Positions 99-14,621 of a DNA stretch of 64,000 nt are shown piece after piece; the first letter of the stretch is position 1, and every line of letters starts with the position of its first letter. Source of the DNA: a virus (Duplodnaviria; Caudoviricetes). The notes below the pieces were generated by a model that was given only the letters and a program-made list of their open reading frames with translations, was not told the DNA's origin and did not search any database. The stretch is from IMG/VR virus record IMGVR_UViG_3300020037_006332, positions 8,561 through 72,560 of that record. One strand, written 5' to 3'. A program made the translations under genes and the position numbers.

Positions 99-2165
99 CT
101 ACTGAATTCTGGCGTAGTAGGCTTTGAATTGTTCGGTTAGGTGCCGGCGGTACTGTTCCACGGCGTCAATGAGGCCCTGTTTTTCCCAGAATGCGTAGCA
201 CTTCGGGAATGCCTTCTTTAGGCCCTCTAGCCCCTTGGTTACTCCCCAAAATCCATCTGGCTTTTTGTGCGACCACGGTTCGCCGCCGGCGGCCTCGAAA
301 ATGGCCCGGCCAAACTCGGCGAAACCTTCCCACGTGCTTTGAACGGCGTAAGCCGATAGGGGCACGTCGCTGTCTTTGACTTGCTTCCACCAGTCGCTGC
401 GTCCGCCGCTGTTGTTGGCAATGGTCCGGACGGCACTGGTTTGGATTTCCTCTAGGAATGCTTCTACCCATTCCTGGTTTTTGGATAGCTCGAATTGGCC
501 GGTCCCTCCGCAGTCCAGGGCGTGGGCAAATTCATGGGCATAAATTCCTTCATTGCCGGAGCCGGCGACGTTGTGGATCGTGTTGTCGCCAGCCGCGTAG
601 AATCCGCCCACGGTAAACCCGGCGGGCCTGCCGGTGCGTTTCTCGAATTCGGCTTGCAGGGACTCCCGGTTAGCGTAGGCTTTCATGCCGCCGGCCGTCC
701 CCTTGGCGATGCGTTCCTTAGCCTTGGCTGAAAACCCACGCATGGATTTTCGCATTCCGGTTTTGTATTGCTCCGGCTTGCGGCCGTAGTTCGGGGCGTA
801 CTCGCCAAGGGCTTCGTTCATTTCCTTTTCAAAGTATTCCCCTAGGATTCGCTGCGTTTCTAGTGATAGCTCGGCACGCTCACGGGGCTGGTTTATAAAG
901 TTAATTCCCCGGGCGTCGGCGGCGGCGTTGACTATCCTTTGTTGGATTGTGTTCAGGTTCTCGCCGGTATTGAATGCGGCGTGCAGCATGTCGCCGGTAA
1001 TGCCTAGCGGGGCTAATTTCTTCACCAGCCCGGGCGAGATATCGACTAGATGGAAAGCATACTTGGGGTCTAGTTTGTAGTCGAACCAATCCCGGCGGCT
1101 GACGGTATCGACTAGCTCGTCGGTACTGCTGTCGATGGCGTCGGCCAGCTTCTCCCCCACGGCGACGCGGCTGGTGCCGGTGCTTTCGTCGAAAAGCGAT
1201 TGCTGGCCCTTGGCGGCCTTGCGTTTGGGTGCGGCGGATTCTCCGGGCCCGTCCCCAAACTTTCCATCGGCCGCCCGGGGGTGCTTACTTTCGTCCCACG
1301 CATAGCGAAACTGGCGGGCGTAGCGGTAGACGGATTCGGCTCGGCGGAATCGCTGGGCGTATTGTTCCACGGCGTCCACCAGCCCATGCTTGTGCCAATA
1401 GGCGTAGCACTGCGGAAACTGAGTTTTGGCGGCCTCGGGGTCTTCAAATAAAAGCCGGCCAAACTCGGCGAAACCCTCCTCGGATCGCGTGCAGGCGTAG
1501 GCCGATAACGGCACTTCCCACGGCACTAGATCGTGCCACCAGTTATCGAAATTGCCGGAATTAAAGCCGGCTTCCATTGCGTCCAGGACGGTCTGGTTAA
1601 TTATCTCGGCTCGCCATGCGTCTTCCCACTCGTTCGTTTGGGAAAACTCATACCGCTTTCCGTTCCAGTCAATCGCGTGGGCAAACTCGTGGGCGTAGCT
1701 CCCGGCCTGACCTTCCGTGGCAATGGTTGCTATGTAGCCCTTACTGCGGTCAAAAAACCCCATCACGCCTGCGTTTTCGGGGAGCCCTGACGCTACCGAA
1801 ATTTCGGCGGAATCTTCGTAAGCCTCGAATCCATTGGGGCACGAATTGCTAATCCGCTCGATGGCCTTGCGGCTGAATCGGTCCAGCACGCTGGCCATCT
1901 GCTGGCGGTACGCCTTGACGTTATCCCGGGATAAAAACGCCTTGCTTTCTTGCCCCGGGAAAGTCTTTAGCTTGTGGGATTGCCGTAGCCGTTCCTCGAT
2001 GCTCTGGCGGTGGTCGGTTGGTTCAGGGGCCGATGGTTCGGCTCCGCCGCCCTCGCCAAACTTCCCGTCTTCGGCCCTCGGGTGCTTACTTTCGTCCCAC
2101 TGGGCGGCGTAGCGGTCCAGGTAGGTGAATTCGGCGAATGCCAGCCGGTAGGCTAGGTCGTTCAT
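99..2165 (-). CDS. Putative head-associated protein with two WDESKHPR tags and two anthrax-lethal-factor-like (zincin) metallopeptidase domains
   Basis: Start moved to MNDLAY (AAGGA RBS). Two HEFAH...LSAYA...EGFAE...FPxCYAxW units and two WDESKHPRAxDGKFG motifs. Confidence 0.8.
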   Translation of the reverse strand: MNDLAYRLAFAEFTYLDRYAAQWDESKHPRAEDGKFGEGGGAEPSAPEPTDHRQSIEERLRQSHKLKTFPGQESKAFLSRDNVKAYRQQMASVLDRFSRKAIERISNSCPNGFEAYEDSAEISVASGLPENAGVMGFFDRSKGYIATIATEGQAGSYAHEFAHAIDWNGKRYEFSQTNEWEDAWRAEIINQTVLDAMEAGFNSGNFDNWWHDLVPWEVPLSAYACTRSEEGFAEFGRLLFEDPEAAKTQFPQCYAYWHKHGLVDAVEQYAQRFRRAESVYRYARQFRYAWDESKHPRAADGKFGDGPGESAAPKRKAAKGQQSLFDESTGTSRVAVGEKLADAIDSSTDELVDTVSRRDWFDYKLDPKYAFHLVDISPGLVKKLAPLGITGDMLHAAFNTGENLNTIQQRIVNAAADARGINFINQPRERAELSLETQRILGEYFEKEMNEALGEYAPNYGRKPEQYKTGMRKSMRGFSAKAKERIAKGTAGGMKAYANRESLQAEFEKRTGRPAGFTVGGFYAAGDNTIHNVAGSGNEGIYAHEFAHALDCGGTGQFELSKNQEWVEAFLEEIQTSAVRTIANNSGGRSDWWKQVKDSDVPLSAYAVQSTWEGFAEFGRAIFEAAGGEPWSHKKPDGFWGVTKGLEGLKKAFPKCYAFWEKQGLIDAVEQYRRHLTEQFKAYYARIQ

Positions 2166-2218
2166 GGTGGCATCCTTGCCAGTGGTGGGAATCCCGCTGG
2201 CCCATGATACCAAACCGG

Positions 2219-2527
2219 CTAGCGGTTGGTAAACGTCTTGCCGCGTTTCTTGACTTTGCTGGGGGCTAATTCCTTGGCTGTGGCGGTGCTTTGGCGGATG
2301 ATCTTGCGGGTGAGCCGGTCCAGCCGCTCGGCTTCGGTTTCCGGGGCTCGGGGCGGATCGACGGCCCGATAGCGGAGCATGCAACCGGCCCACGGGAATT
2401 GCTGGTTGAATCGCACGGCGGGGCGGTTCAGGCGTTCCAGGTGCGAATCTCGAAGTTCGCGGGTCGGGTAGCTCTTGAACGTCCGCCAGCCGGCTTTTTC
2501 GTCGAAGATTTCAATGCTAAAGTTCAT
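2219..2527 (-). CDS. Hypothetical protein
   Basis: ORF from MNFSIEIF, overlapping the upstream gene's stop, basic C-terminus. Confidence 0.65.
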   Translation of the reverse strand: MNFSIEIFDEKAGWRTFKSYPTRELRDSHLERLNRPAVRFNQQFPWAGCMLRYRAVDPPRAPETEAERLDRLTRKIIRQSTATAKELAPSKVKKRGKTFTNR

Positions 2528-2777
2528 GCGGTTCCTCGCGTTCGGCGGCCAGTCCGCCAACTAGGTAATTTCGGATTTCCTCGATAAGCCGATGCCGGCT
2601 GCCGTCCGGTATGCCGGGGTGCCCGTGGTCGCATCGGTTGGAAATCGTGATCGAGCCCGGGAAATCCTGGTCGAACCTGATTGTTTCGCCGGCATCGGTG
2701 CGGTCAATTATCGCGTCCACGATTTCGCGGCAAAGCCGGTTGATCGTTTCGTCGGACTTGACGCCTTTACGGGCCAT
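2517..2777 (-). CDS. Hypothetical protein
   Basis: 86-aa ORF downstream of the promoter at 2884-2911. Confidence 0.65.
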   Translation of the reverse strand: MARKGVKSDETINRLCREIVDAIIDRTDAGETIRFDQDFPGSITISNRCDHGHPGIPDGSRHRLIEEIRNYLVGGLAAEREEPHEL

Positions 2778-2798
2778 CGCGGGTTAATTCCGGGGGTG

Positions 2799-2842
2799 AA
2801 AAAACCGGGGGCAAGGGTAGTGTTAGACCCCTCGCCCCCGGC
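2799..2842 (-). terminator. Rho-independent terminator-like hairpin
   Basis: CCGGGGGC...GCCCCCGG stem followed by a U6 tract on the minus strand. Confidence 0.55.
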
Positions 2843-2883
2843 GGTTCAGGAGGTTGACGCATGAGGTCGCCAACTAGGTGCCC

Positions 2884-2911
2884 ACTATAGCGAGCGGTTT
2901 TGGCTTGTCAA
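2884..2911 (-). promoter_or_regulatory. Sigma70-like promoter with CGCTCGC box
   Basis: TTGACA-16 nt-TATAGT; spacer ends in CGCTCGC. Confidence 0.75.
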
Positions 2912-5900
2912 GCGTACCGCCAGCGGGGCCGGTAGTAGCGTTCCACGCTGCCGCTGGCGGCGTTGCGGGCTTGGAGGTCTTTTAGGTGCGGGAAGTCTTT
3001 GAGGATTTCCTGGGGGATGGTGCCGCCCTGGGCGATGTGGTCCTTCATGGCGGCCACGTAGTCGCGGTTCGCCTGCTGGACGTCGTAGTCCCCTTTCTTG
3101 CCGGCTTTCTGTAGGTGGTGCCACTGGGCCCTGGTGAATCCCCATTCGTTGGCTGGTCGGCCGCCGCCGGACTTGGGTGGCTCGGGTTTCTTGGGCGGTT
3201 CCGGGTCTTTGGGCTCGGGGGTCTTCGCTTCGGGCTGGTTGGGCTTGCTTTCTTCGGCGGCCTGCTGGGCTTTGCCGATTAGGCCATGCTTCTGCCAAAA
3301 CGCATAGCACTTGGGGAATTTCTCTTTGGCTAGTTCCTCGTTCTCGAAAATAAAACGGGCATATTCCGCAAACCCCTCTGAGGCGTTTTTGTTGGCGTAT
3401 TCGGAAAGTCGGTAGCCATGCTGGCGGCTATATTTGATTTCATCCTGGTACGCGACTTGCCACTGCGTATCGCTGGATAATTTCGATTCGCTGTAGCGGA
3501 ATTTAGCATCTAGGATATGGGCTTTCCGCTCCCACGCATCGCGGTCAAAGTCGATGGCGTGGCCCAGCTCGTGGGCCAGAATCGACGCGGGCCCCATGTC
3601 TCCCATGTCCTTTTCGAGTGGCACCACTAGCTCGCCCTTTTGGCCTGCGAAATAGCCGCCAATGCGGCTGTTTTGCGTGTTGATACGCTGGCGGCTGGCG
3701 GCTGCGTAGGCCCGGGTCACTGACAGCGTATCGCTGTGGACTTCGATTTTTTGGACGGATTTGCTAATCCGCTCGGCGGATTTCGGGGAGAACGTATTGA
3801 GGACGGCCCGGACGGATGCGTTAAAGCCTTGCATTTGCTCCGGCTTGGCTTTGAAAGCCACCATTTTGCCGGACTGATTGGCCATTTTCTTGACGTCGCC
3901 GGGGTTAATTTTGGCGAATGCGGCGGCCACGGTTTTGCGGAATGGATTATCTGCCGGGTCTTCTTCTTCCGGTTCTGGTTCGGGCTCGGGTGCTTTGGGC
4001 GGCTCGGGCTTCTCGGGTGGGCCATCGAATAGCCCCTTCTGCCCCTTGCTGGGCTTTACCCGGACGTCTTCGGTAGTCGCTCCGCCGCCCTCGCCAAACT
4101 TCCCGTCGGCCGCTCGGGGGTGTTTACTTTCGTCCCATTCGTAGCGGGCCACGTCGCCCCGGCGGGCAAACGGCACGGCGTCCAGTTCCTCGGGGGTGGC
4201 GTCGTGCTCGCCCCAGTCTTCCCAGCCGCCGCCCTCGCCTTCCGGGGCCATCCCGGATTTATTGGCGTTGTACAAGATTTCGGCGGCTTGGCGGATTAGC
4301 TTGGGGTCGGTTTTGCTAGGCTTTTCGGGCGGGTTGCGGAGTAAATCCCAAAGCCGGCCGGCTAGGTCTTCATCGTCGGCATTGGCCCCGCCTTCGTAGC
4401 CCCGGCCGATGCCCAGCTCGGGAATGCTGCTGGCCAGCCGGCGGGCGATATCGTCCAGGCCGGGGACGCTGGCGGCGTCGCCGCCGGTGTTCTCCAGGTG
4501 GGCTAGTTGCTTTGGGGTTAGGCCGGTTTGCTTGCGGGCTTCGGCGATAGCGTCCAGGGTGGGCTGGTAGGCTTCGGCCTTTTCCTGGTAAACGTGGTCC
4601 AGGGTTTTGGCTAATTCTTCCGGGTCGACGCCCCAGTCTTCGGCCTCACGGGCGACTAGCTGGTTCGATAGGTCATCCACCTTTTGGCCACGCATCCGCT
4701 CACGCGGGGCCTGGGCGTTGGCGGGCTGCTGGTCGGTGTGTTTGACGTTGCCGATCTTGGCATTGTTGCGGGCTAGGTATTTCTTGGCCCGGGCGGTCAT
4801 TTCGTCCTGAATCGCCTTGCGGACGGTGGGGTCGCTGGCGATGCCCGGGGCGAGATAGACGTCGGCGTCAATCTTCCCAGTCTGGCCGGTGGCCCGTTTC
4901 ATTTCAAACGCCCCGGCGACCTTGCTGTCGTGGATCACGGTGACGGTGACCGTGCCGGTGGCCTTGTCGGTCTTAATGCCCACCTGAAGGGCCTTGCGGA
5001 CTTGGCTGGCGGTGCCGGCCGTCGGCTTCGGTTTCTCGGGGGCGGGCTGGGCCTGCCGGGTTTTAGATTCCGCGATAGCGGCCCTGGCTTCGGCCAGTAG
5101 GTCCTGCTTCCGCTTGATATCGGCGTCCAGCTTGCTGGGTTTCTTGCCGGCCTTTCCTTTGGGCTCGGGCTGCTTCTTGTTGATGCTGCTGACGTTCTGG
5201 CCGGTTAAATTCTTGGGTCCGGCGTGGATATGGCCGTTGTCGTCAATCAGCACGGGGGTGCCGCCGTCGCCCTCGTGGGCCCCGATGGTGACCCAGCGGG
5301 CGTAACGTAGGATTTTCCCGGGGCGGCGGTTGCGTTCGGTGTCTGCCTGACGCATCGAAGCCAGAGAAGCCCGGTTCTCGGCTAGGACATTTTCCAGGGC
5401 GGCAATCTGTTTCTTGAGCTGCTTCTGCTCTTTTGCGTTCAGGGTCGGGAGCATGGCCGCCCCACGCTCTAGGGCTTCCTCTAGCTGGCTGTTTTGCTTT
5501 TCAAGGTGGGCAATATCTTTGGCAAAGCCGGTTGGCTCGGCCTTCTCGGCCGGGGCAAAGTCAGCCCGGACGTCTTCCGGGAGTTCAATTCCGTCGTGCT
5601 TCGCGTCGCTGATAGCCCCGACGTGCTGGCGATAAGTCGGTGTGTCAATCTCGTGGCTGCCAATCATCTTATCGACGTCCAGGCTAGAGATATCCAGCCA
5701 CCCTTGCTTGCCTCCCACAAAGATTTGCAGGCCGTTGCCGTGGGCCCGGATATGGGCCGGATCGGCGAGCGGCGTGGCTCGCATTTGCGTGGTGTGGTAA
5801 ACAGTTTCGCCGGATTTGATTTTCTCGGCGATGGCCTTGGCCGTAGTCTCGGCCCACTGCTTTTTAGTCCACTTCGTAAGGTCCGGGCGGCTGCCGCCGC

Positions 5901-11472: not shown

Positions 11473-11500
11473 AGTATAGCGAGCGAATGCGGCTGGTCAA
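11473..11500 (-). promoter_or_regulatory. Sigma70-like promoter with CGCTCGC box
   Basis: TTGACC-16-TATACT. Confidence 0.7.
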
Positions 11501-13878
11501 GCTCGGCGGGGGCCCTGGAATTGCACGCTCTCGCGGGGCTTCCAGGGGCGTTGGACGGGCTTCGGGGCGGAGCCGGTGCCCATCTTGTCGCTATAGATCG
11601 CGTAGCCCATCGCGTCCAGGGCGTGGTCGTTAAAGTCCACGGGACGGTTTTGGGGGTTCCGCTGGCGGCGAGCGGCGTCGCCGGTGCTGGCCCCGGTGGG
11701 CTCGGCCCAGTGATAGCCGCGAATCTCGGAAATCAGATTCTTGCACTTGCTGAGAATGTAGAGCCGGGGGCGGCCGTTGTCGCCCACCAGCATAAGGCTC
11801 CGCAGTTCCGAAATCCGGCTATTGACGGGGTACTGGCCGAAACCTTTATTAGCCCCGGTGCACTTGAGGCCCAGCCGGGTAAATTCGACCATTTGCTGGG
11901 GGTCGGCCGTGTCGCAATAGGTTGGCCCGTAGGCGGGGTGATCGTATTTCCAATCCCGCTGGTTAATTTTGGCCAAGTGGTAGGCGTTGGGCTTTTGGGT
12001 TTCGTAGTGTTCGTCGTAAACGTAGTAGGTGCCGTCTTTGTCACGGGCCACCCAAACCACGGCAAACGGCGAATTGTAGCCCCAGTCGATGCCCCGGATG
12101 TGGAGCCATCCACTGGGGATGCGGCCGGCGTCAAGCTGCTCGGCCAGCTTCCGCATGGGCTCGGGGAGGGTGGTGCTGGCGGGGTCCAGGACGTGGATGC
12201 CCCGGCGGAATTCCTTGAATACCTGTCCCCGGAACGTGGCGAAATGCCCGGTTTCGCGGGTCATCCGCATATCTTCGTCGGTGGCCTTCAGTCGGCTTTG
12301 TACATAGTCCTGGTCGATGTACTGATTGAGGCTGGTGTTTAGGTGGTAGAATTCCCAGCCGTCGGGGACGTCTTCGTATTTGTCGGGCCACTCGGGGGAC
12401 ACGATTTCGACGGGGGTAAAATCGGCCCAGCCCGGGCTACCGTAGTCGCGGCATCGCCACTGGACTTCCTCCACAATCTCGAACGGCACTTCCTCGTTAA
12501 ACCAGTAGCCGCCGATTGATCGGCCTTGCATATGCTGGCGGCCCTGGTTGTAGCTCTTGAATTCGATAACCCACCCGATTTTGCTGGGGTTCTTGGGGTG
12601 CTTCAGCAGCACGGCGGCGGGCCATGATCGCTGCTTATCGAACCACGAAATATGGGCAATCTTTTCGGGCGGGATAAACGTGGAGAGTTTTTCCTGCCAG
12701 CAAATGCTGCAAACCATGTCGAACGATTGCCCGATAATCCAGAATGGGCAGTGTTCTCGATAGGGCGGGGTATCGAGCACGTAGCGGGCCGTCTTGTAGG
12801 CGGCGGCCACGGTCTTGCCGCTGTTGTGGTGGAAAACCCCGGCCAGCTCGTAGTTGTGCCACCCGTGGACGGTGAAATCATAGAAGTCCTGGACGCCAAT
12901 CGGCTCGATCTTGACCACGTGGGCGGTATTGGCTATCGTTGCCTCCAATGGGTACGTGGAATCGCATAGACTGGCCGGTCGAGAAAATGCGTACTTGGTA
13001 CGAAGTGGACGGCCTTTCGTGTGCTGAAATTGGGGCCAAGCTCCAGCAGTCTGGGCGGACTGTGTGGAAAGTTTGCAAGCGGCATGGGTTTCGGATGCGT
13101 CCTGTAGGGCCGCCCCGTGGCGAGAAAAACCCGGCCTGGAAGGGTGGCCGCACGGTCGATAAGGCTGGTTATGTGCTAACGCTTTGCCCGTCGCATCCGC
13201 AAGCCAATTCGGGCGGCTATGTCCGGGAGCATCGGCTAATCGCCGAACGGCTTCTAGGGCGATATCTGCTCCCGTCGGAAGTGGTTCACCATGTAAACGA
13301 TGACCCTGCGGATAATCGGCCGGAAAACCTACTGGTGTATGCCACAAACGGCTTGCACTTGGCGGACACGCTGCAAGGCAAGTGCCCAAACTGGTCGGAC
13401 GATGGGCGGGTCCGGATCGCGGCCGGAGTTGCGAAACGTGCATCCAATCGCCGGAAGCGGTCAAAACCCGGTGGTGCCCAGTCGCCTTAAATGCCTGCCC
13501 GTTGCTCATGGTTACGCGATAGAGCATGTCCCGGCCCTTGCGGAATGGGGCGTTGGCTAGGGCCGGCACGGCTTGCTGGCCATCCCACGCGACCACGTGC
13601 CACGGCTCCCGGATTTGGTCCACGCGGCGGTGGTGATTCGCCACGGGGTCAAAAACAAGCGTATCGCCGGCCACGCATCCGTTGCCCCCTAGGCAAATGG
13701 CGAAGTTGGCCTTGCTGTTGACGAATGCGGTTTGTTCGTCAAAGTTCTCGGGGTTGTCCGGGCGGGGAGTGAACATTTCCAGCGGGGTAAGCCGCTGGTT
13801 ATATTCCCGGACTAGGCGGCCGTGGCCTGCCTTAATGAGGGCTTGAATCTGCTGGGGGCTGAATACTTTGGCTGGCAT
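11497..13878 (-). CDS. terL: Terminase large subunit, intein-containing
   Basis: Walker A GGNG/SGKT split by an intein; Walker B YWFNEE; nuclease motifs GIDWG, YCDTAD, DHALDA. Confidence 0.92.
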   Translation of the reverse strand: MPAKVFSPQQIQALIKAGHGRLVREYNQRLTPLEMFTPRPDNPENFDEQTAFVNSKANFAICLGGNGCVAGDTLVFDPVANHHRRVDQIREPWHVVAWDGQQAVPALANAPFRKGRDMLYRVTMSNGQAFKATGHHRVLTASGDWMHVSQLRPRSGPAHRPTSLGTCLAACPPSASRLWHTPVGFPADYPQGHRLHGEPLPTGADIALEAVRRLADAPGHSRPNWLADATGKALAHNQPYRPCGHPSRPGFSRHGAALQDASETHAACKLSTQSAQTAGAWPQFQHTKGRPLRTKYAFSRPASLCDSTYPLEATIANTAHVVKIEPIGVQDFYDFTVHGWHNYELAGVFHHNSGKTVAAAYKTARYVLDTPPYREHCPFWIIGQSFDMVCSICWQEKLSTFIPPEKIAHISWFDKQRSWPAAVLLKHPKNPSKIGWVIEFKSYNQGRQHMQGRSIGGYWFNEEVPFEIVEEVQWRCRDYGSPGWADFTPVEIVSPEWPDKYEDVPDGWEFYHLNTSLNQYIDQDYVQSRLKATDEDMRMTRETGHFATFRGQVFKEFRRGIHVLDPASTTLPEPMRKLAEQLDAGRIPSGWLHIRGIDWGYNSPFAVVWVARDKDGTYYVYDEHYETQKPNAYHLAKINQRDWKYDHPAYGPTYCDTADPQQMVEFTRLGLKCTGANKGFGQYPVNSRISELRSLMLVGDNGRPRLYILSKCKNLISEIRGYHWAEPTGASTGDAARRQRNPQNRPVDFNDHALDAMGYAIYSDKMGTGSAPKPVQRPWKPRESVQFQGPRRA
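12911..12939 (+). promoter_or_regulatory. Promoter for the antisense HNH gene inside the intein
   Basis: TTGACC-17-TATCGT, 8 nt before the ATG at 12948 (leaderless geometry). Confidence 0.55.
12948..13490 (+). CDS. HNH endonuclease (HNH_3-like, N-terminal HTH) nested antisense within the intein
   Basis: GEKNPAWKGG, YVREHRLIAERLLGRYLLPSEVVHHVNDDPADNRPENL. Confidence 0.9.
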   Translation: MGTWNRIDWPVEKMRTWYEVDGLSCAEIGAKLQQSGRTVWKVCKRHGFRMRPVGPPRGEKNPAWKGGRTVDKAGYVLTLCPSHPQANSGGYVREHRLIAERLLGRYLLPSEVVHHVNDDPADNRPENLLVYATNGLHLADTLQGKCPNWSDDGRVRIAAGVAKRASNRRKRSKPGGAQSP

Positions 13879-14224
13879 CCATGCCTCTGCCGAACGGGAT
13901 GTAAAGGGTGTAATAGCCGGCCTTACGGAGTGCGTCCCGCATGGCAATCGCGGCTGGCCCGTTGAAACTGTGCACCACAAACGTCCGCACGTCGGGCTTG
14001 TTCATTAGAATCCAGCGGACCACTTCACTGCCGCTATTTTCTTCGGCGGTGTCTTGATAGTGCTGGCCGCCTAGGTCGTGGTCCAGGTGTACCTCGAACC
14101 ATGTTTCCGGGCGGCGGAGCTGGTCAATACACTCGCGGGCCGTGTTGACGATGATGGCGTCGGGTTGCATCCGACGGAAAATCCGGCAGCGGGTGGGGTC
14201 ATCGTCTAGGAACAAAATGGCCAT
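13832..14224 (-). CDS. Cyclic-phosphate-processing receiver-like domain protein
   Basis: ILFLDDD...HLDHDLG...SGSEVVRWI...VHSFN pattern. Confidence 0.75.
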   Translation of the reverse strand: MAILFLDDDPTRCRIFRRMQPDAIIVNTARECIDQLRRPETWFEVHLDHDLGGQHYQDTAEENSGSEVVRWILMNKPDVRTFVVHSFNGPAAIAMRDALRKAGYYTLYIPFGRGMDASQSIQPPADSSPH

Positions 14225-14621
14225 GTGTGCGGGCTTCCTTGCGGATAAATCCAAACTCCATTTCAAACATCGGGGACGCTTGGTGGCTCTTGAATGGTCG
14301 CCGCGAGACGTGTGAAAGCTGGTATTCCAGGACCGTCGCCACTAATCGCATCCGGGTCGTTAGCTGCTCGTGGTCATCGACGTGGGCCATGTAAATGGCG
14401 GTGATCGTGTGCACGTAGGCCAGCACGGTTTCGCGGCTACTGAGGCCCAGCGGCCGGGGGCCAACCGACATATCCCACGTGGCTTTTGTAAAAACTCGAT
14501 TGATACTTTTCCAGGTCCGCCAGTCTTCCCGGAGTTTGGCCAATAGCTCCCCGTGCTTATGCTCGGCGGCGGCTTGGTGCCCCCAGTCGGTGAACATCGT
14601 CACGGGGTCGATTTCGATCAT
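14199..14621 (-). CDS. Hypothetical protein, EIDP-xM-DW N-terminal family
   Basis: MIEIDPVTMFTDW; ATGA coupling. Confidence 0.7.
   Translation of the reverse strand: MIEIDPVTMFTDWGHQAAAEHKHGELLAKLREDWRTWKSINRVFTKATWDMSVGPRPLGLSSRETVLAYVHTITAIYMAHVDDHEQLTTRMRLVATVLEYQLSHVSRRPFKSHQASPMFEMEFGFIRKEARTHGHFVPRR

Follow-up and report, generated by a model that had tools for sequence, protein, structure and literature searches.

Can one stretch of DNA serve on one strand as the linker of an intein and on the other strand as the gene of an endonuclease? The question is raised by terL, the gene of the large terminase subunit, in 64,000 nt (positions 8,561-72,560) of the 72.6-kb phage record IMGVR_UViG_3300020037_006332 of IMG/VR. 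This whole stretch is called the window in the following. The codons of the Walker A motif (P-loop) of terL are interrupted by an intein, and the DNA between the splicing blocks of this intein encodes a helix-turn-helix (HTH)-HNH endonuclease on the opposite strand. We regard it as likely that a mini-intein and a nested antisense HNH homing-endonuclease gene home here together into the P-loop codons of the terminase. The window case is an undescribed HNH variant of an architecture that has been described with other nucleases.

The intein and the HNH gene on its opposite strand

A complete HTH-HNH endonuclease had been predicted for the reverse strand of the intein, and this was confirmed by an intact open reading frame (ORF) and by profile searches. 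The product matched the Pfam family HNH_3 (PF13392; E 8.3e-9, 35.4 bits with a cut-off of 24.8), weakly HTH_38, and HNH families of PHROG (phrog_10730, HNH endonuclease, E 4.5e-26). The HTH occupies approximately residues 3-48; the HNH core follows at approximately residues 58-149, and H115, N123 and N127 in it are invariant in 18 homologues. An AlphaFold2 model with a mean predicted local distance difference test score (pLDDT) of 87.4 consists of a three-helix N-terminal domain and a beta-beta-alpha core, the elements of which (strands 112-115 and 128-131, helix 134-142) were predicted at a pLDDT of about 95. With residues 58-149 as query of an unfiltered structural search (VIA-align), I-HmuI (1u3e) ranked first (Z 6.9, root mean square deviation (rmsd) 3.6 A, 81 residues), which is below the level of safe fold identity; residues 3-48 matched HTH DNA-binding domains. 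The I-HmuI match is not decisive alone, but it agrees with the HNH profile matches. Foldseek of the model against the PDB gave nothing at E<=0.001 (I-HmuI, E 0.42), and the only match of the HNH alignment profile among PDB sequences was a weak one to an HTH protein (2lvs, E 6e-4). All 543 nt of the HNH gene lie inside the open intein frame, and its last 77 nt overlap the N-terminal lobe of the Hint domain.

The intein itself was found exactly as predicted, with Cys at its start, His-Asn at its end and Ser as the next residue, splitting the motif as GGNG/SGKT (Table 1). Among ten homologous inteins C1, H69, D267, Y276, G280 and N285 are invariant, H284 is nearly so, and T66 is present in 90% or more. 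The Pfam match to Intein_splicing remained below threshold (29.6 bits, cut-off 35.8). The structure was modelled with AlphaFold2 on an alignment of the ten inteins. Foldseek matched the confident part of the model to the Mtu RecA and Ssp DnaB mini-inteins (E 4e-6 to 3e-5, probability 1.0), and superposition on the splicing domain of Mtu RecA gave an rmsd of 1.4 A over 90 columns. Thus a Hint fold is predicted in two lobes that flank a long linker. This linker had been described as junk-like sequence that nevertheless stays open, which holds: it contains no stop codon and was modelled at a pLDDT of about 33. In the whole terL frame Pfam detected solely Terminase_6N, Terminase_6C and Intein_splicing, and no LAGLIDADG, HNH or other nuclease domain at E<=0.1. 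As the catalytic residues are intact and TerL is essential, the TerL precursor is presumably spliced.

Table 1 Coordinates of the terL region in the window, with the evidence for each feature
Feature	Position	Strand	Evidence
terL (large terminase) precursor, intein included	11497..13878	-	Terminase_6N and Terminase_6C (Pfam); start by homology
N-extein, 67 amino acids, ending in CLGGNG (first half of Walker A)	13678..13878	-	Boundaries and alignment to the intein-less allele
C-extein, starting with SGKT (second half of Walker A), stop codon included	11497..12822	-	88% nucleotide identity to L003
Class-1 intein, 285 amino acids; Cys1, block B T66..H69, block F D267, His284-Asn285, Ser+1	12823..13677	-	Boundaries; conserved columns in 10 inteins; 855-bp indel relative to L003
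Hint N-terminal lobe, residues 1-88	13414..13677	-	AlphaFold2 pLDDT 88-96, beta strands; Foldseek
Intein linker, residues 89-249, open, predicted to be unstructured, antisense reading of the HNH gene	12931..13413	-	AlphaFold2 pLDDT 30-37 (about 33), no secondary structure
Hint C-terminal lobe, residues 250-285, blocks F and G	12823..12930	-	AlphaFold2 pLDDT 86-95
HTH-HNH gene (putative homing endonuclease), 180 amino acids plus stop, nested in the intein	12948..13490	+	Pfam HNH_3, PHROG HNH, AlphaFold2, structural search
Sigma-70-like site TTGACC-17-TATCGT, putative function	12911..12939	+	9/12 consensus match

Nearly all long ORFs of the window, terL included, are on the minus strand. The terL ORF is open at 11497-13980 (up to a TTG at 13980), and ATG 13878 was taken as its start, since the protein that starts there can be aligned with the intein-less allele P0001 from its first residue on. 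P0001 is the nearest terminase in the protein collection and is 93% identical to the TerL of the window in amino acids. Synteny between the window and its contigs, L003 and L004, extends over more than 20 kb (67-93% identical in nucleotides); the TerL of these contigs is 93% identical in amino acids and 87% in nucleotides. The blastn alignment to L003 breaks at positions 12820/13679 of the window, which corresponds to a clean insertion of 855 bp; GGNGSGKT is uninterrupted in both contigs. Hence the intein-less terL alleles that the original prediction proposed to look for do exist. No HNH homologue was found in the parts of these contigs that were examined, 21.5 kb of L003 (about 10 kb on either side of terL in a 71-kb contig) and 15.3 kb of L004. 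A distant-mode blastn search of GenBank phages with the region gave no match.

An assembly chimera was considered as a source of the arrangement and rejected. Matching sequence was obtained from three DNA runs as four short, low-depth contigs that showed no joints. Both junctions between intein and extein are spanned by contigs of an independent public run; hence the arrangement is not an artefact of assembly.

Selection on the two strands

For comparison of the reading frames a second example was used, the locus L001 (terL P0006), which has an antisense ORF of 198 amino acids. The HNH proteins of both loci start with MGTWNRIDWP at a conserved ATG; an in-frame TTG upstream of it in the window (12939) is not conserved. 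Between the window and L001 the HNH frame is 63% identical in amino acids and the intein frame over the same DNA 29%. The differences at HNH codon positions 1, 2 and 3 number 56, 41 and 103, and the proportions of nonsynonymous and synonymous differences are 0.24 (pN) and 0.79 (pS). The dN/dS comparison suggested for both frames accordingly gave a purifying pattern in the HNH frame and not in the intein frame. An apparent dN/dS of 2.5 was calculated for the latter. This is an expected artefact, because the second codon position of the intein frame is the third position of the HNH frame.

The intein frame of the window has no stop codon in this region, and the four other alternative frames have 3-6 each. 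The same was seen in all four loci tested, with no stop in the intein frame and 3-20 in each of the two other antisense and two other sense frames. When the codons of the HNH gene were permuted among synonyms, the intein frame of the window stayed open in 3.9% of the trials; for the three other loci the values were 0.06%, 0.02% and <0.02%. The double openness exceeds chance. An antisense ORF that arose by chance was considered and rejected; the third-position bias of the HNH frame speaks against it.

Coding of about 540 bp on both strands, as originally predicted, was thus confirmed, and the arrangement is conserved and selected. Hence selection maintains the protein encoded in the HNH frame, but in the intein frame it maintains no more than openness. 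Such two-level selection would be feasible because the linker of about 160 residues need only be a flexible tether between the Hint lobes. The locus is a clean natural case of two-strand coding, in which selection favours a protein on one strand and mere freedom from stops on the other. A Hint domain that tolerates about 160 unstructured residues between its lobes is also of practical interest for intein engineering.

Recurrence, proposed homing and alternative explanations

A search for other inteins with antisense HNH ORFs had been recommended, and it identified 21 other loci across distant terminase families. They comprise L001, L005, L006 and 18 of the best 80 loci that were considered from a scan of IMG/VR with the HNH alignment. 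In these 18 (L007-L018, L022, L034-L036, L039 and L054) the HNH gene lies antisense and in the same phase within an open frame of 543-1214 amino acids. The phase, with position 1 of the HNH codon on position 1 of the terL codon, is identical in all 22 loci. L005 and L006 have exteins about 36% identical to the TerL of the window and antisense HTH-HNH ORFs of 260 and 286 amino acids. Ten of the 18 antisense host frames were examined with Pfam, and nine of them matched terminase families (Terminase_6N, Terminase_3), Hint/intein-splicing families, or both; the host frame of L054 had no Pfam match. Apart from one group, which uses a second site, the insertion is in the P-loop. The HNHs of the other IMG/VR loci, and those matched in isolated phages, look free-standing.

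The HNH protein of the window is 61-63% identical to those of L007 and L008, compared with 26-27% for the exteins and 36-42% for the Hint N-lobes. Conservation of the HNH well above that of the host TerL (63% against 27%) points to horizontal spread. In a quick tree these HNHs form one clade (Shimodaira-Hasegawa-like approximate likelihood ratio test (SH-aLRT) 96), and those embedded in inteins cluster by insertion site, with one label change needed for the Walker A group and one for the second-site group; none of 500 shuffles was as low. The data fit an element that has spread between distant terminase genes and an HNH lineage that has long been associated with inteins. The layout is recurrent and long-lived in environmental phage terminases, and not a curiosity of a few actinophages.

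The public gene calls at L001, L005 and L006 contain terL only; the nested antisense HNH ORF was never called. Such HNHs are consequently absent from protein collections built on these calls, and protein databases and phage annotations systematically undercount nested HNH nucleases.

Several of the loci merit separate mention. At L011 the HNH match (3001-3486, plus strand) contains an internal stop and the 812-residue terL/intein frame opposite has remained open; possibly the nuclease is in decay and the intein can still be spliced. L014 (311-3952, minus strand) has a TerL frame of 1214 amino acids with an antisense-HNH Walker A intein. P0081 (1195 amino acids), taken to be from the same contig, has LAGLIDADG_3 on record, so that a second, canonical intein may share the gene. 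Further HNH-like matches (3001-3150, plus strand) are antisense inside giant 'large polyvalent protein' genes of L076 (1-5133, minus strand) and L080 (1-6150, minus strand), host genes with LPD22, InPase and helicase domains; in L080 the HNH-like ORF has 408 amino acids (2128-3354, plus strand). The phase there is that of exact complements, and Pfam detected no Hint family in the large ORFs. These may be another kind of nested nuclease gene or chance open frames.

Inteins with short or unusual linkers were also observed. The TerL P0004 (770 amino acids) has two mini-inteins together, one of about 130 amino acids and without linker at the Walker A site of the window and the other C-terminal; the former is probably what remains once the nuclease has been lost. 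A further intein site, close to the TerL C-terminus (..NDH|C ... N|S..), is occupied in the homologues P0024, P0063 and P0017. At this site some alleles have long, junk-like linkers rich in Pro, Ser and Thr, in which another out-of-frame or antisense nuclease is probably hidden, and P0004 and P0026 have a compact mini-intein.

As we picture the locus, a composite selfish element has been inserted in the P-loop codons of the terminase gene. Its first part is a class-1 mini-intein (Hint only), which would excise itself from the TerL precursor and restore GGNG-SGKT. The second part is an HTH-HNH gene of the free-standing type, located on the opposite strand inside the dispensable intein linker; it would be expressed from its own plus-strand message. 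During co-infection the HNH protein would presumably nick or cut intein-less terL alleles near the P-loop codons, and recombinational repair would then fill the empty site with a copy of the intein that includes the HNH gene. Purifying selection acts on the HNH protein, and the other strand is constrained to contain no stop and to stay in frame.

Expression of the nuclease was proposed to start from an own promoter, TTGACC-17-TATCGT. The site is present at the position given, with its -10 hexamer ending 8 nt before the conserved ATG of the HNH gene, and transcription may start from it. Since the distance is short and the ATG is not preceded by a Shine-Dalgarno sequence, a transcript from this site would have almost no leader or none. 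In the group of L007-L010 a different site, TTGCCC-17-TAATAT, precedes a ribosome-binding site, AGGAG.

Some points weigh against joint homing. The promoter-like site is weak: it agrees with the consensus in only 9 of 12 positions, is the single such match in 1.1 kb scanned with 0.4 expected in shuffles, and has no conserved counterpart in L001. A Shine-Dalgarno-like motif precedes the HNH gene in most other lineages but not in the window. The HNH tree results from a quick search and has many long branches, and the Z score of 6.9 for I-HmuI falls where unrelated folds also score. In addition, the intein-bearing relatives compared are not close ones; purifying selection on the HNH is seen over a long divergence, and the copy in the window could be newly inactive. 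Plus-strand transcription, translation, cleavage and splicing are all deduced from DNA sequence.

A further-reaching version of joint homing is rather unlikely. It supposes an autonomous, self-transcribed module specialised for terminase P-loops, the nuclease of which would recognise conserved Walker A DNA and which would jump between unrelated terminase families. An early, possibly leaderless transcript would time the nuclease before the late genes and act as an antisense brake on terL. That nuclease expression is decoupled from terminase timing and that antisense RNA affects terL, both parts of the original prediction, is speculation.

Alternatively, the HNH could be an independent free-standing homing endonuclease for which the intein linker is only a safe harbour. 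Its target would be elsewhere or beside the insertion site, and the two parts would travel together only by linkage. Collaborative or trans homing has been described for T4 mobE and I-TevIII, and enzymes of the I-HmuI type nick at a distance from the insertion point. The closest non-intein relatives are indeed free-standing HNH genes in isolated phages and in many IMG/VR loci. Moreover, the HNH is better conserved than the flanking Hint lobes (63% against 36-57%), as might be expected if the nuclease moved, or were selected, on its own. However, the HNHs cluster by insertion site on the quick tree (0/500 shuffles as low), as co-evolution with the target predicts, the phase is the same in 22 loci, and the intein-less relative has no HNH in the 21.5 kb examined. 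We consider this explanation improbable.

It is more improbable still that the element is immobile, in which case the HNH would be a relic that was inactivated recently or is not expressed, and the vertically inherited intein would be turning into a mini-intein. The weak promoter and the missing Shine-Dalgarno sequence would agree with this, and RNA of this sequence was not found among public runs. The stop in the HNH match of L011 opposite an open intein frame illustrates that decay happens, and the linker-less mini-intein of P0004 occupies the same site. On the other hand, the ORF is intact, has all residues that are invariant in 18 homologues and yields a confident fold, and the substitutions relative to L001 are strongly biased to HNH third positions. 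Furthermore, an antisense ORF is not protected by translation of terL and would quickly gain stops if it were unselected.

A role of the HNH as packaging accessory of the terminase (HK97 gp74 type, aiding cos cleavage) was rejected as scarcely credible: HNH proteins adjoining terminase genes are common in phages (PMC3592412) and this one lies inside terL, but it combines HNH_3 with an N-terminal HTH and has I-HmuI as its highest-ranking structural match, it goes with inteins across several terminase families, and L003, with a TerL 93% identical, has neither intein nor HNH within about 10 kb on either side of terL, so that the HNH is dispensable for packaging.

Directly upstream of terL a gene of 144 amino acids (13832-14266, minus strand) overlaps the terL start by 47 nt. 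Its counterpart in L003 matches PF20274 (cREC_REC), a receiver-like domain in the expected position of the small terminase.

Comparison with known systems

The original prediction held that the endonuclease of described inteins is a domain of the same polypeptide, read in frame, and presented the locus as a candidate new architecture of mobile inteins. The former is wrong and the latter overstated. Antisense LAGLIDADG and VSR-like (EDxHD) endonucleases were reported for actinobacteriophage inteins by Gosselin, Arsenault and Gogarten (bioRxiv 10.1101/2025.01.02.630785), and the window holds an HNH version of this layout. Their survey found non-canonical inteins in four host proteins, the terminase large subunit among them, and lists HNH only as in-frame domain (10.1101/2025.01.02.630785). 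For the first antisense LAGLIDADG, in Synechocystis DnaX and a Chloroflexus SpoVR-like protein, the authors credit Gorbalenya 1998 and Gogarten 2002, and as origin they propose invasion of an intein by a free-standing endonuclease gene (10.1101/2025.01.02.630785). A 2026 preprint on the cyanobacterial dnaX intein (10.64898/2026.09.14.751524) differs from Gosselin et al. in describing the endonuclease as a '+2 ORF', not antisense; it shows the same frame-dependent selection pattern as found here.

In common with the non-canonical antisense inteins, the window intein has a Hint domain that is read in the frame of the host gene, an endonuclease ORF that lies between the splicing blocks but runs on the other strand, a structureless in-frame reading and a terminase large subunit as host; invasion by a free-standing nuclease has likewise been proposed for both. 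The differences are the nuclease, which is HTH-HNH (HNH_3, I-HmuI-like) and not LAGLIDADG or VSR-like, and the hosts, which are uncultured environmental phages with several terminase types and not actinophages. In the searchable literature no published antisense HNH endonuclease of an intein was found, and the only HNHs described there for inteins are in-frame domains. The HNH family is thus added to the nucleases that sit antisense inside inteins, and the locus supports the view that in the origin of inteins splicing came first and the nuclease invaded later.

A similar concealment is known from phage methylase genes with HNH insertions of the ShiLan type (Arsenault et al. 2025, PMC11855218). 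There too the insertion is open in the frame of the host gene, and a different frame of it conceals an HNH; translation of this HNH is unsolved, and leaderless initiation was proposed. Unlike the window gene, however, that HNH shares the strand of its host gene, Hint and splicing domains are missing, and the host protein is thought to retain the insert as a loop.

Canonical bifunctional inteins share with the window the Hint fold, the splice-junction residues, the insertion into a conserved nucleotide-binding motif and the homing logic. In contrast, the nuclease of the window is outside the intein polypeptide, and the linker is left without domain match at its low pLDDT. I-HmuI (PDB 1u3e), from a group I intron of phage SPO1, is likewise a free-standing polypeptide encoded in a self-splicing element, but there the element is an RNA intron, the gene is on the sense strand and the DNA-binding domains are C-terminal, whereas here the HTH is N-terminal and the gene lies antisense in a protein intron. 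Finally, in the fractured genes described by Dassa et al. (2009, PMC2677866) a free-standing endonuclease gene is located between the N- and C-terminal halves of a split intein. This placement between Hint halves is also that of the window, but the fractured genes consist of two ORFs that require trans splicing, whereas the terL frame of the window is open throughout and its intein contiguous.

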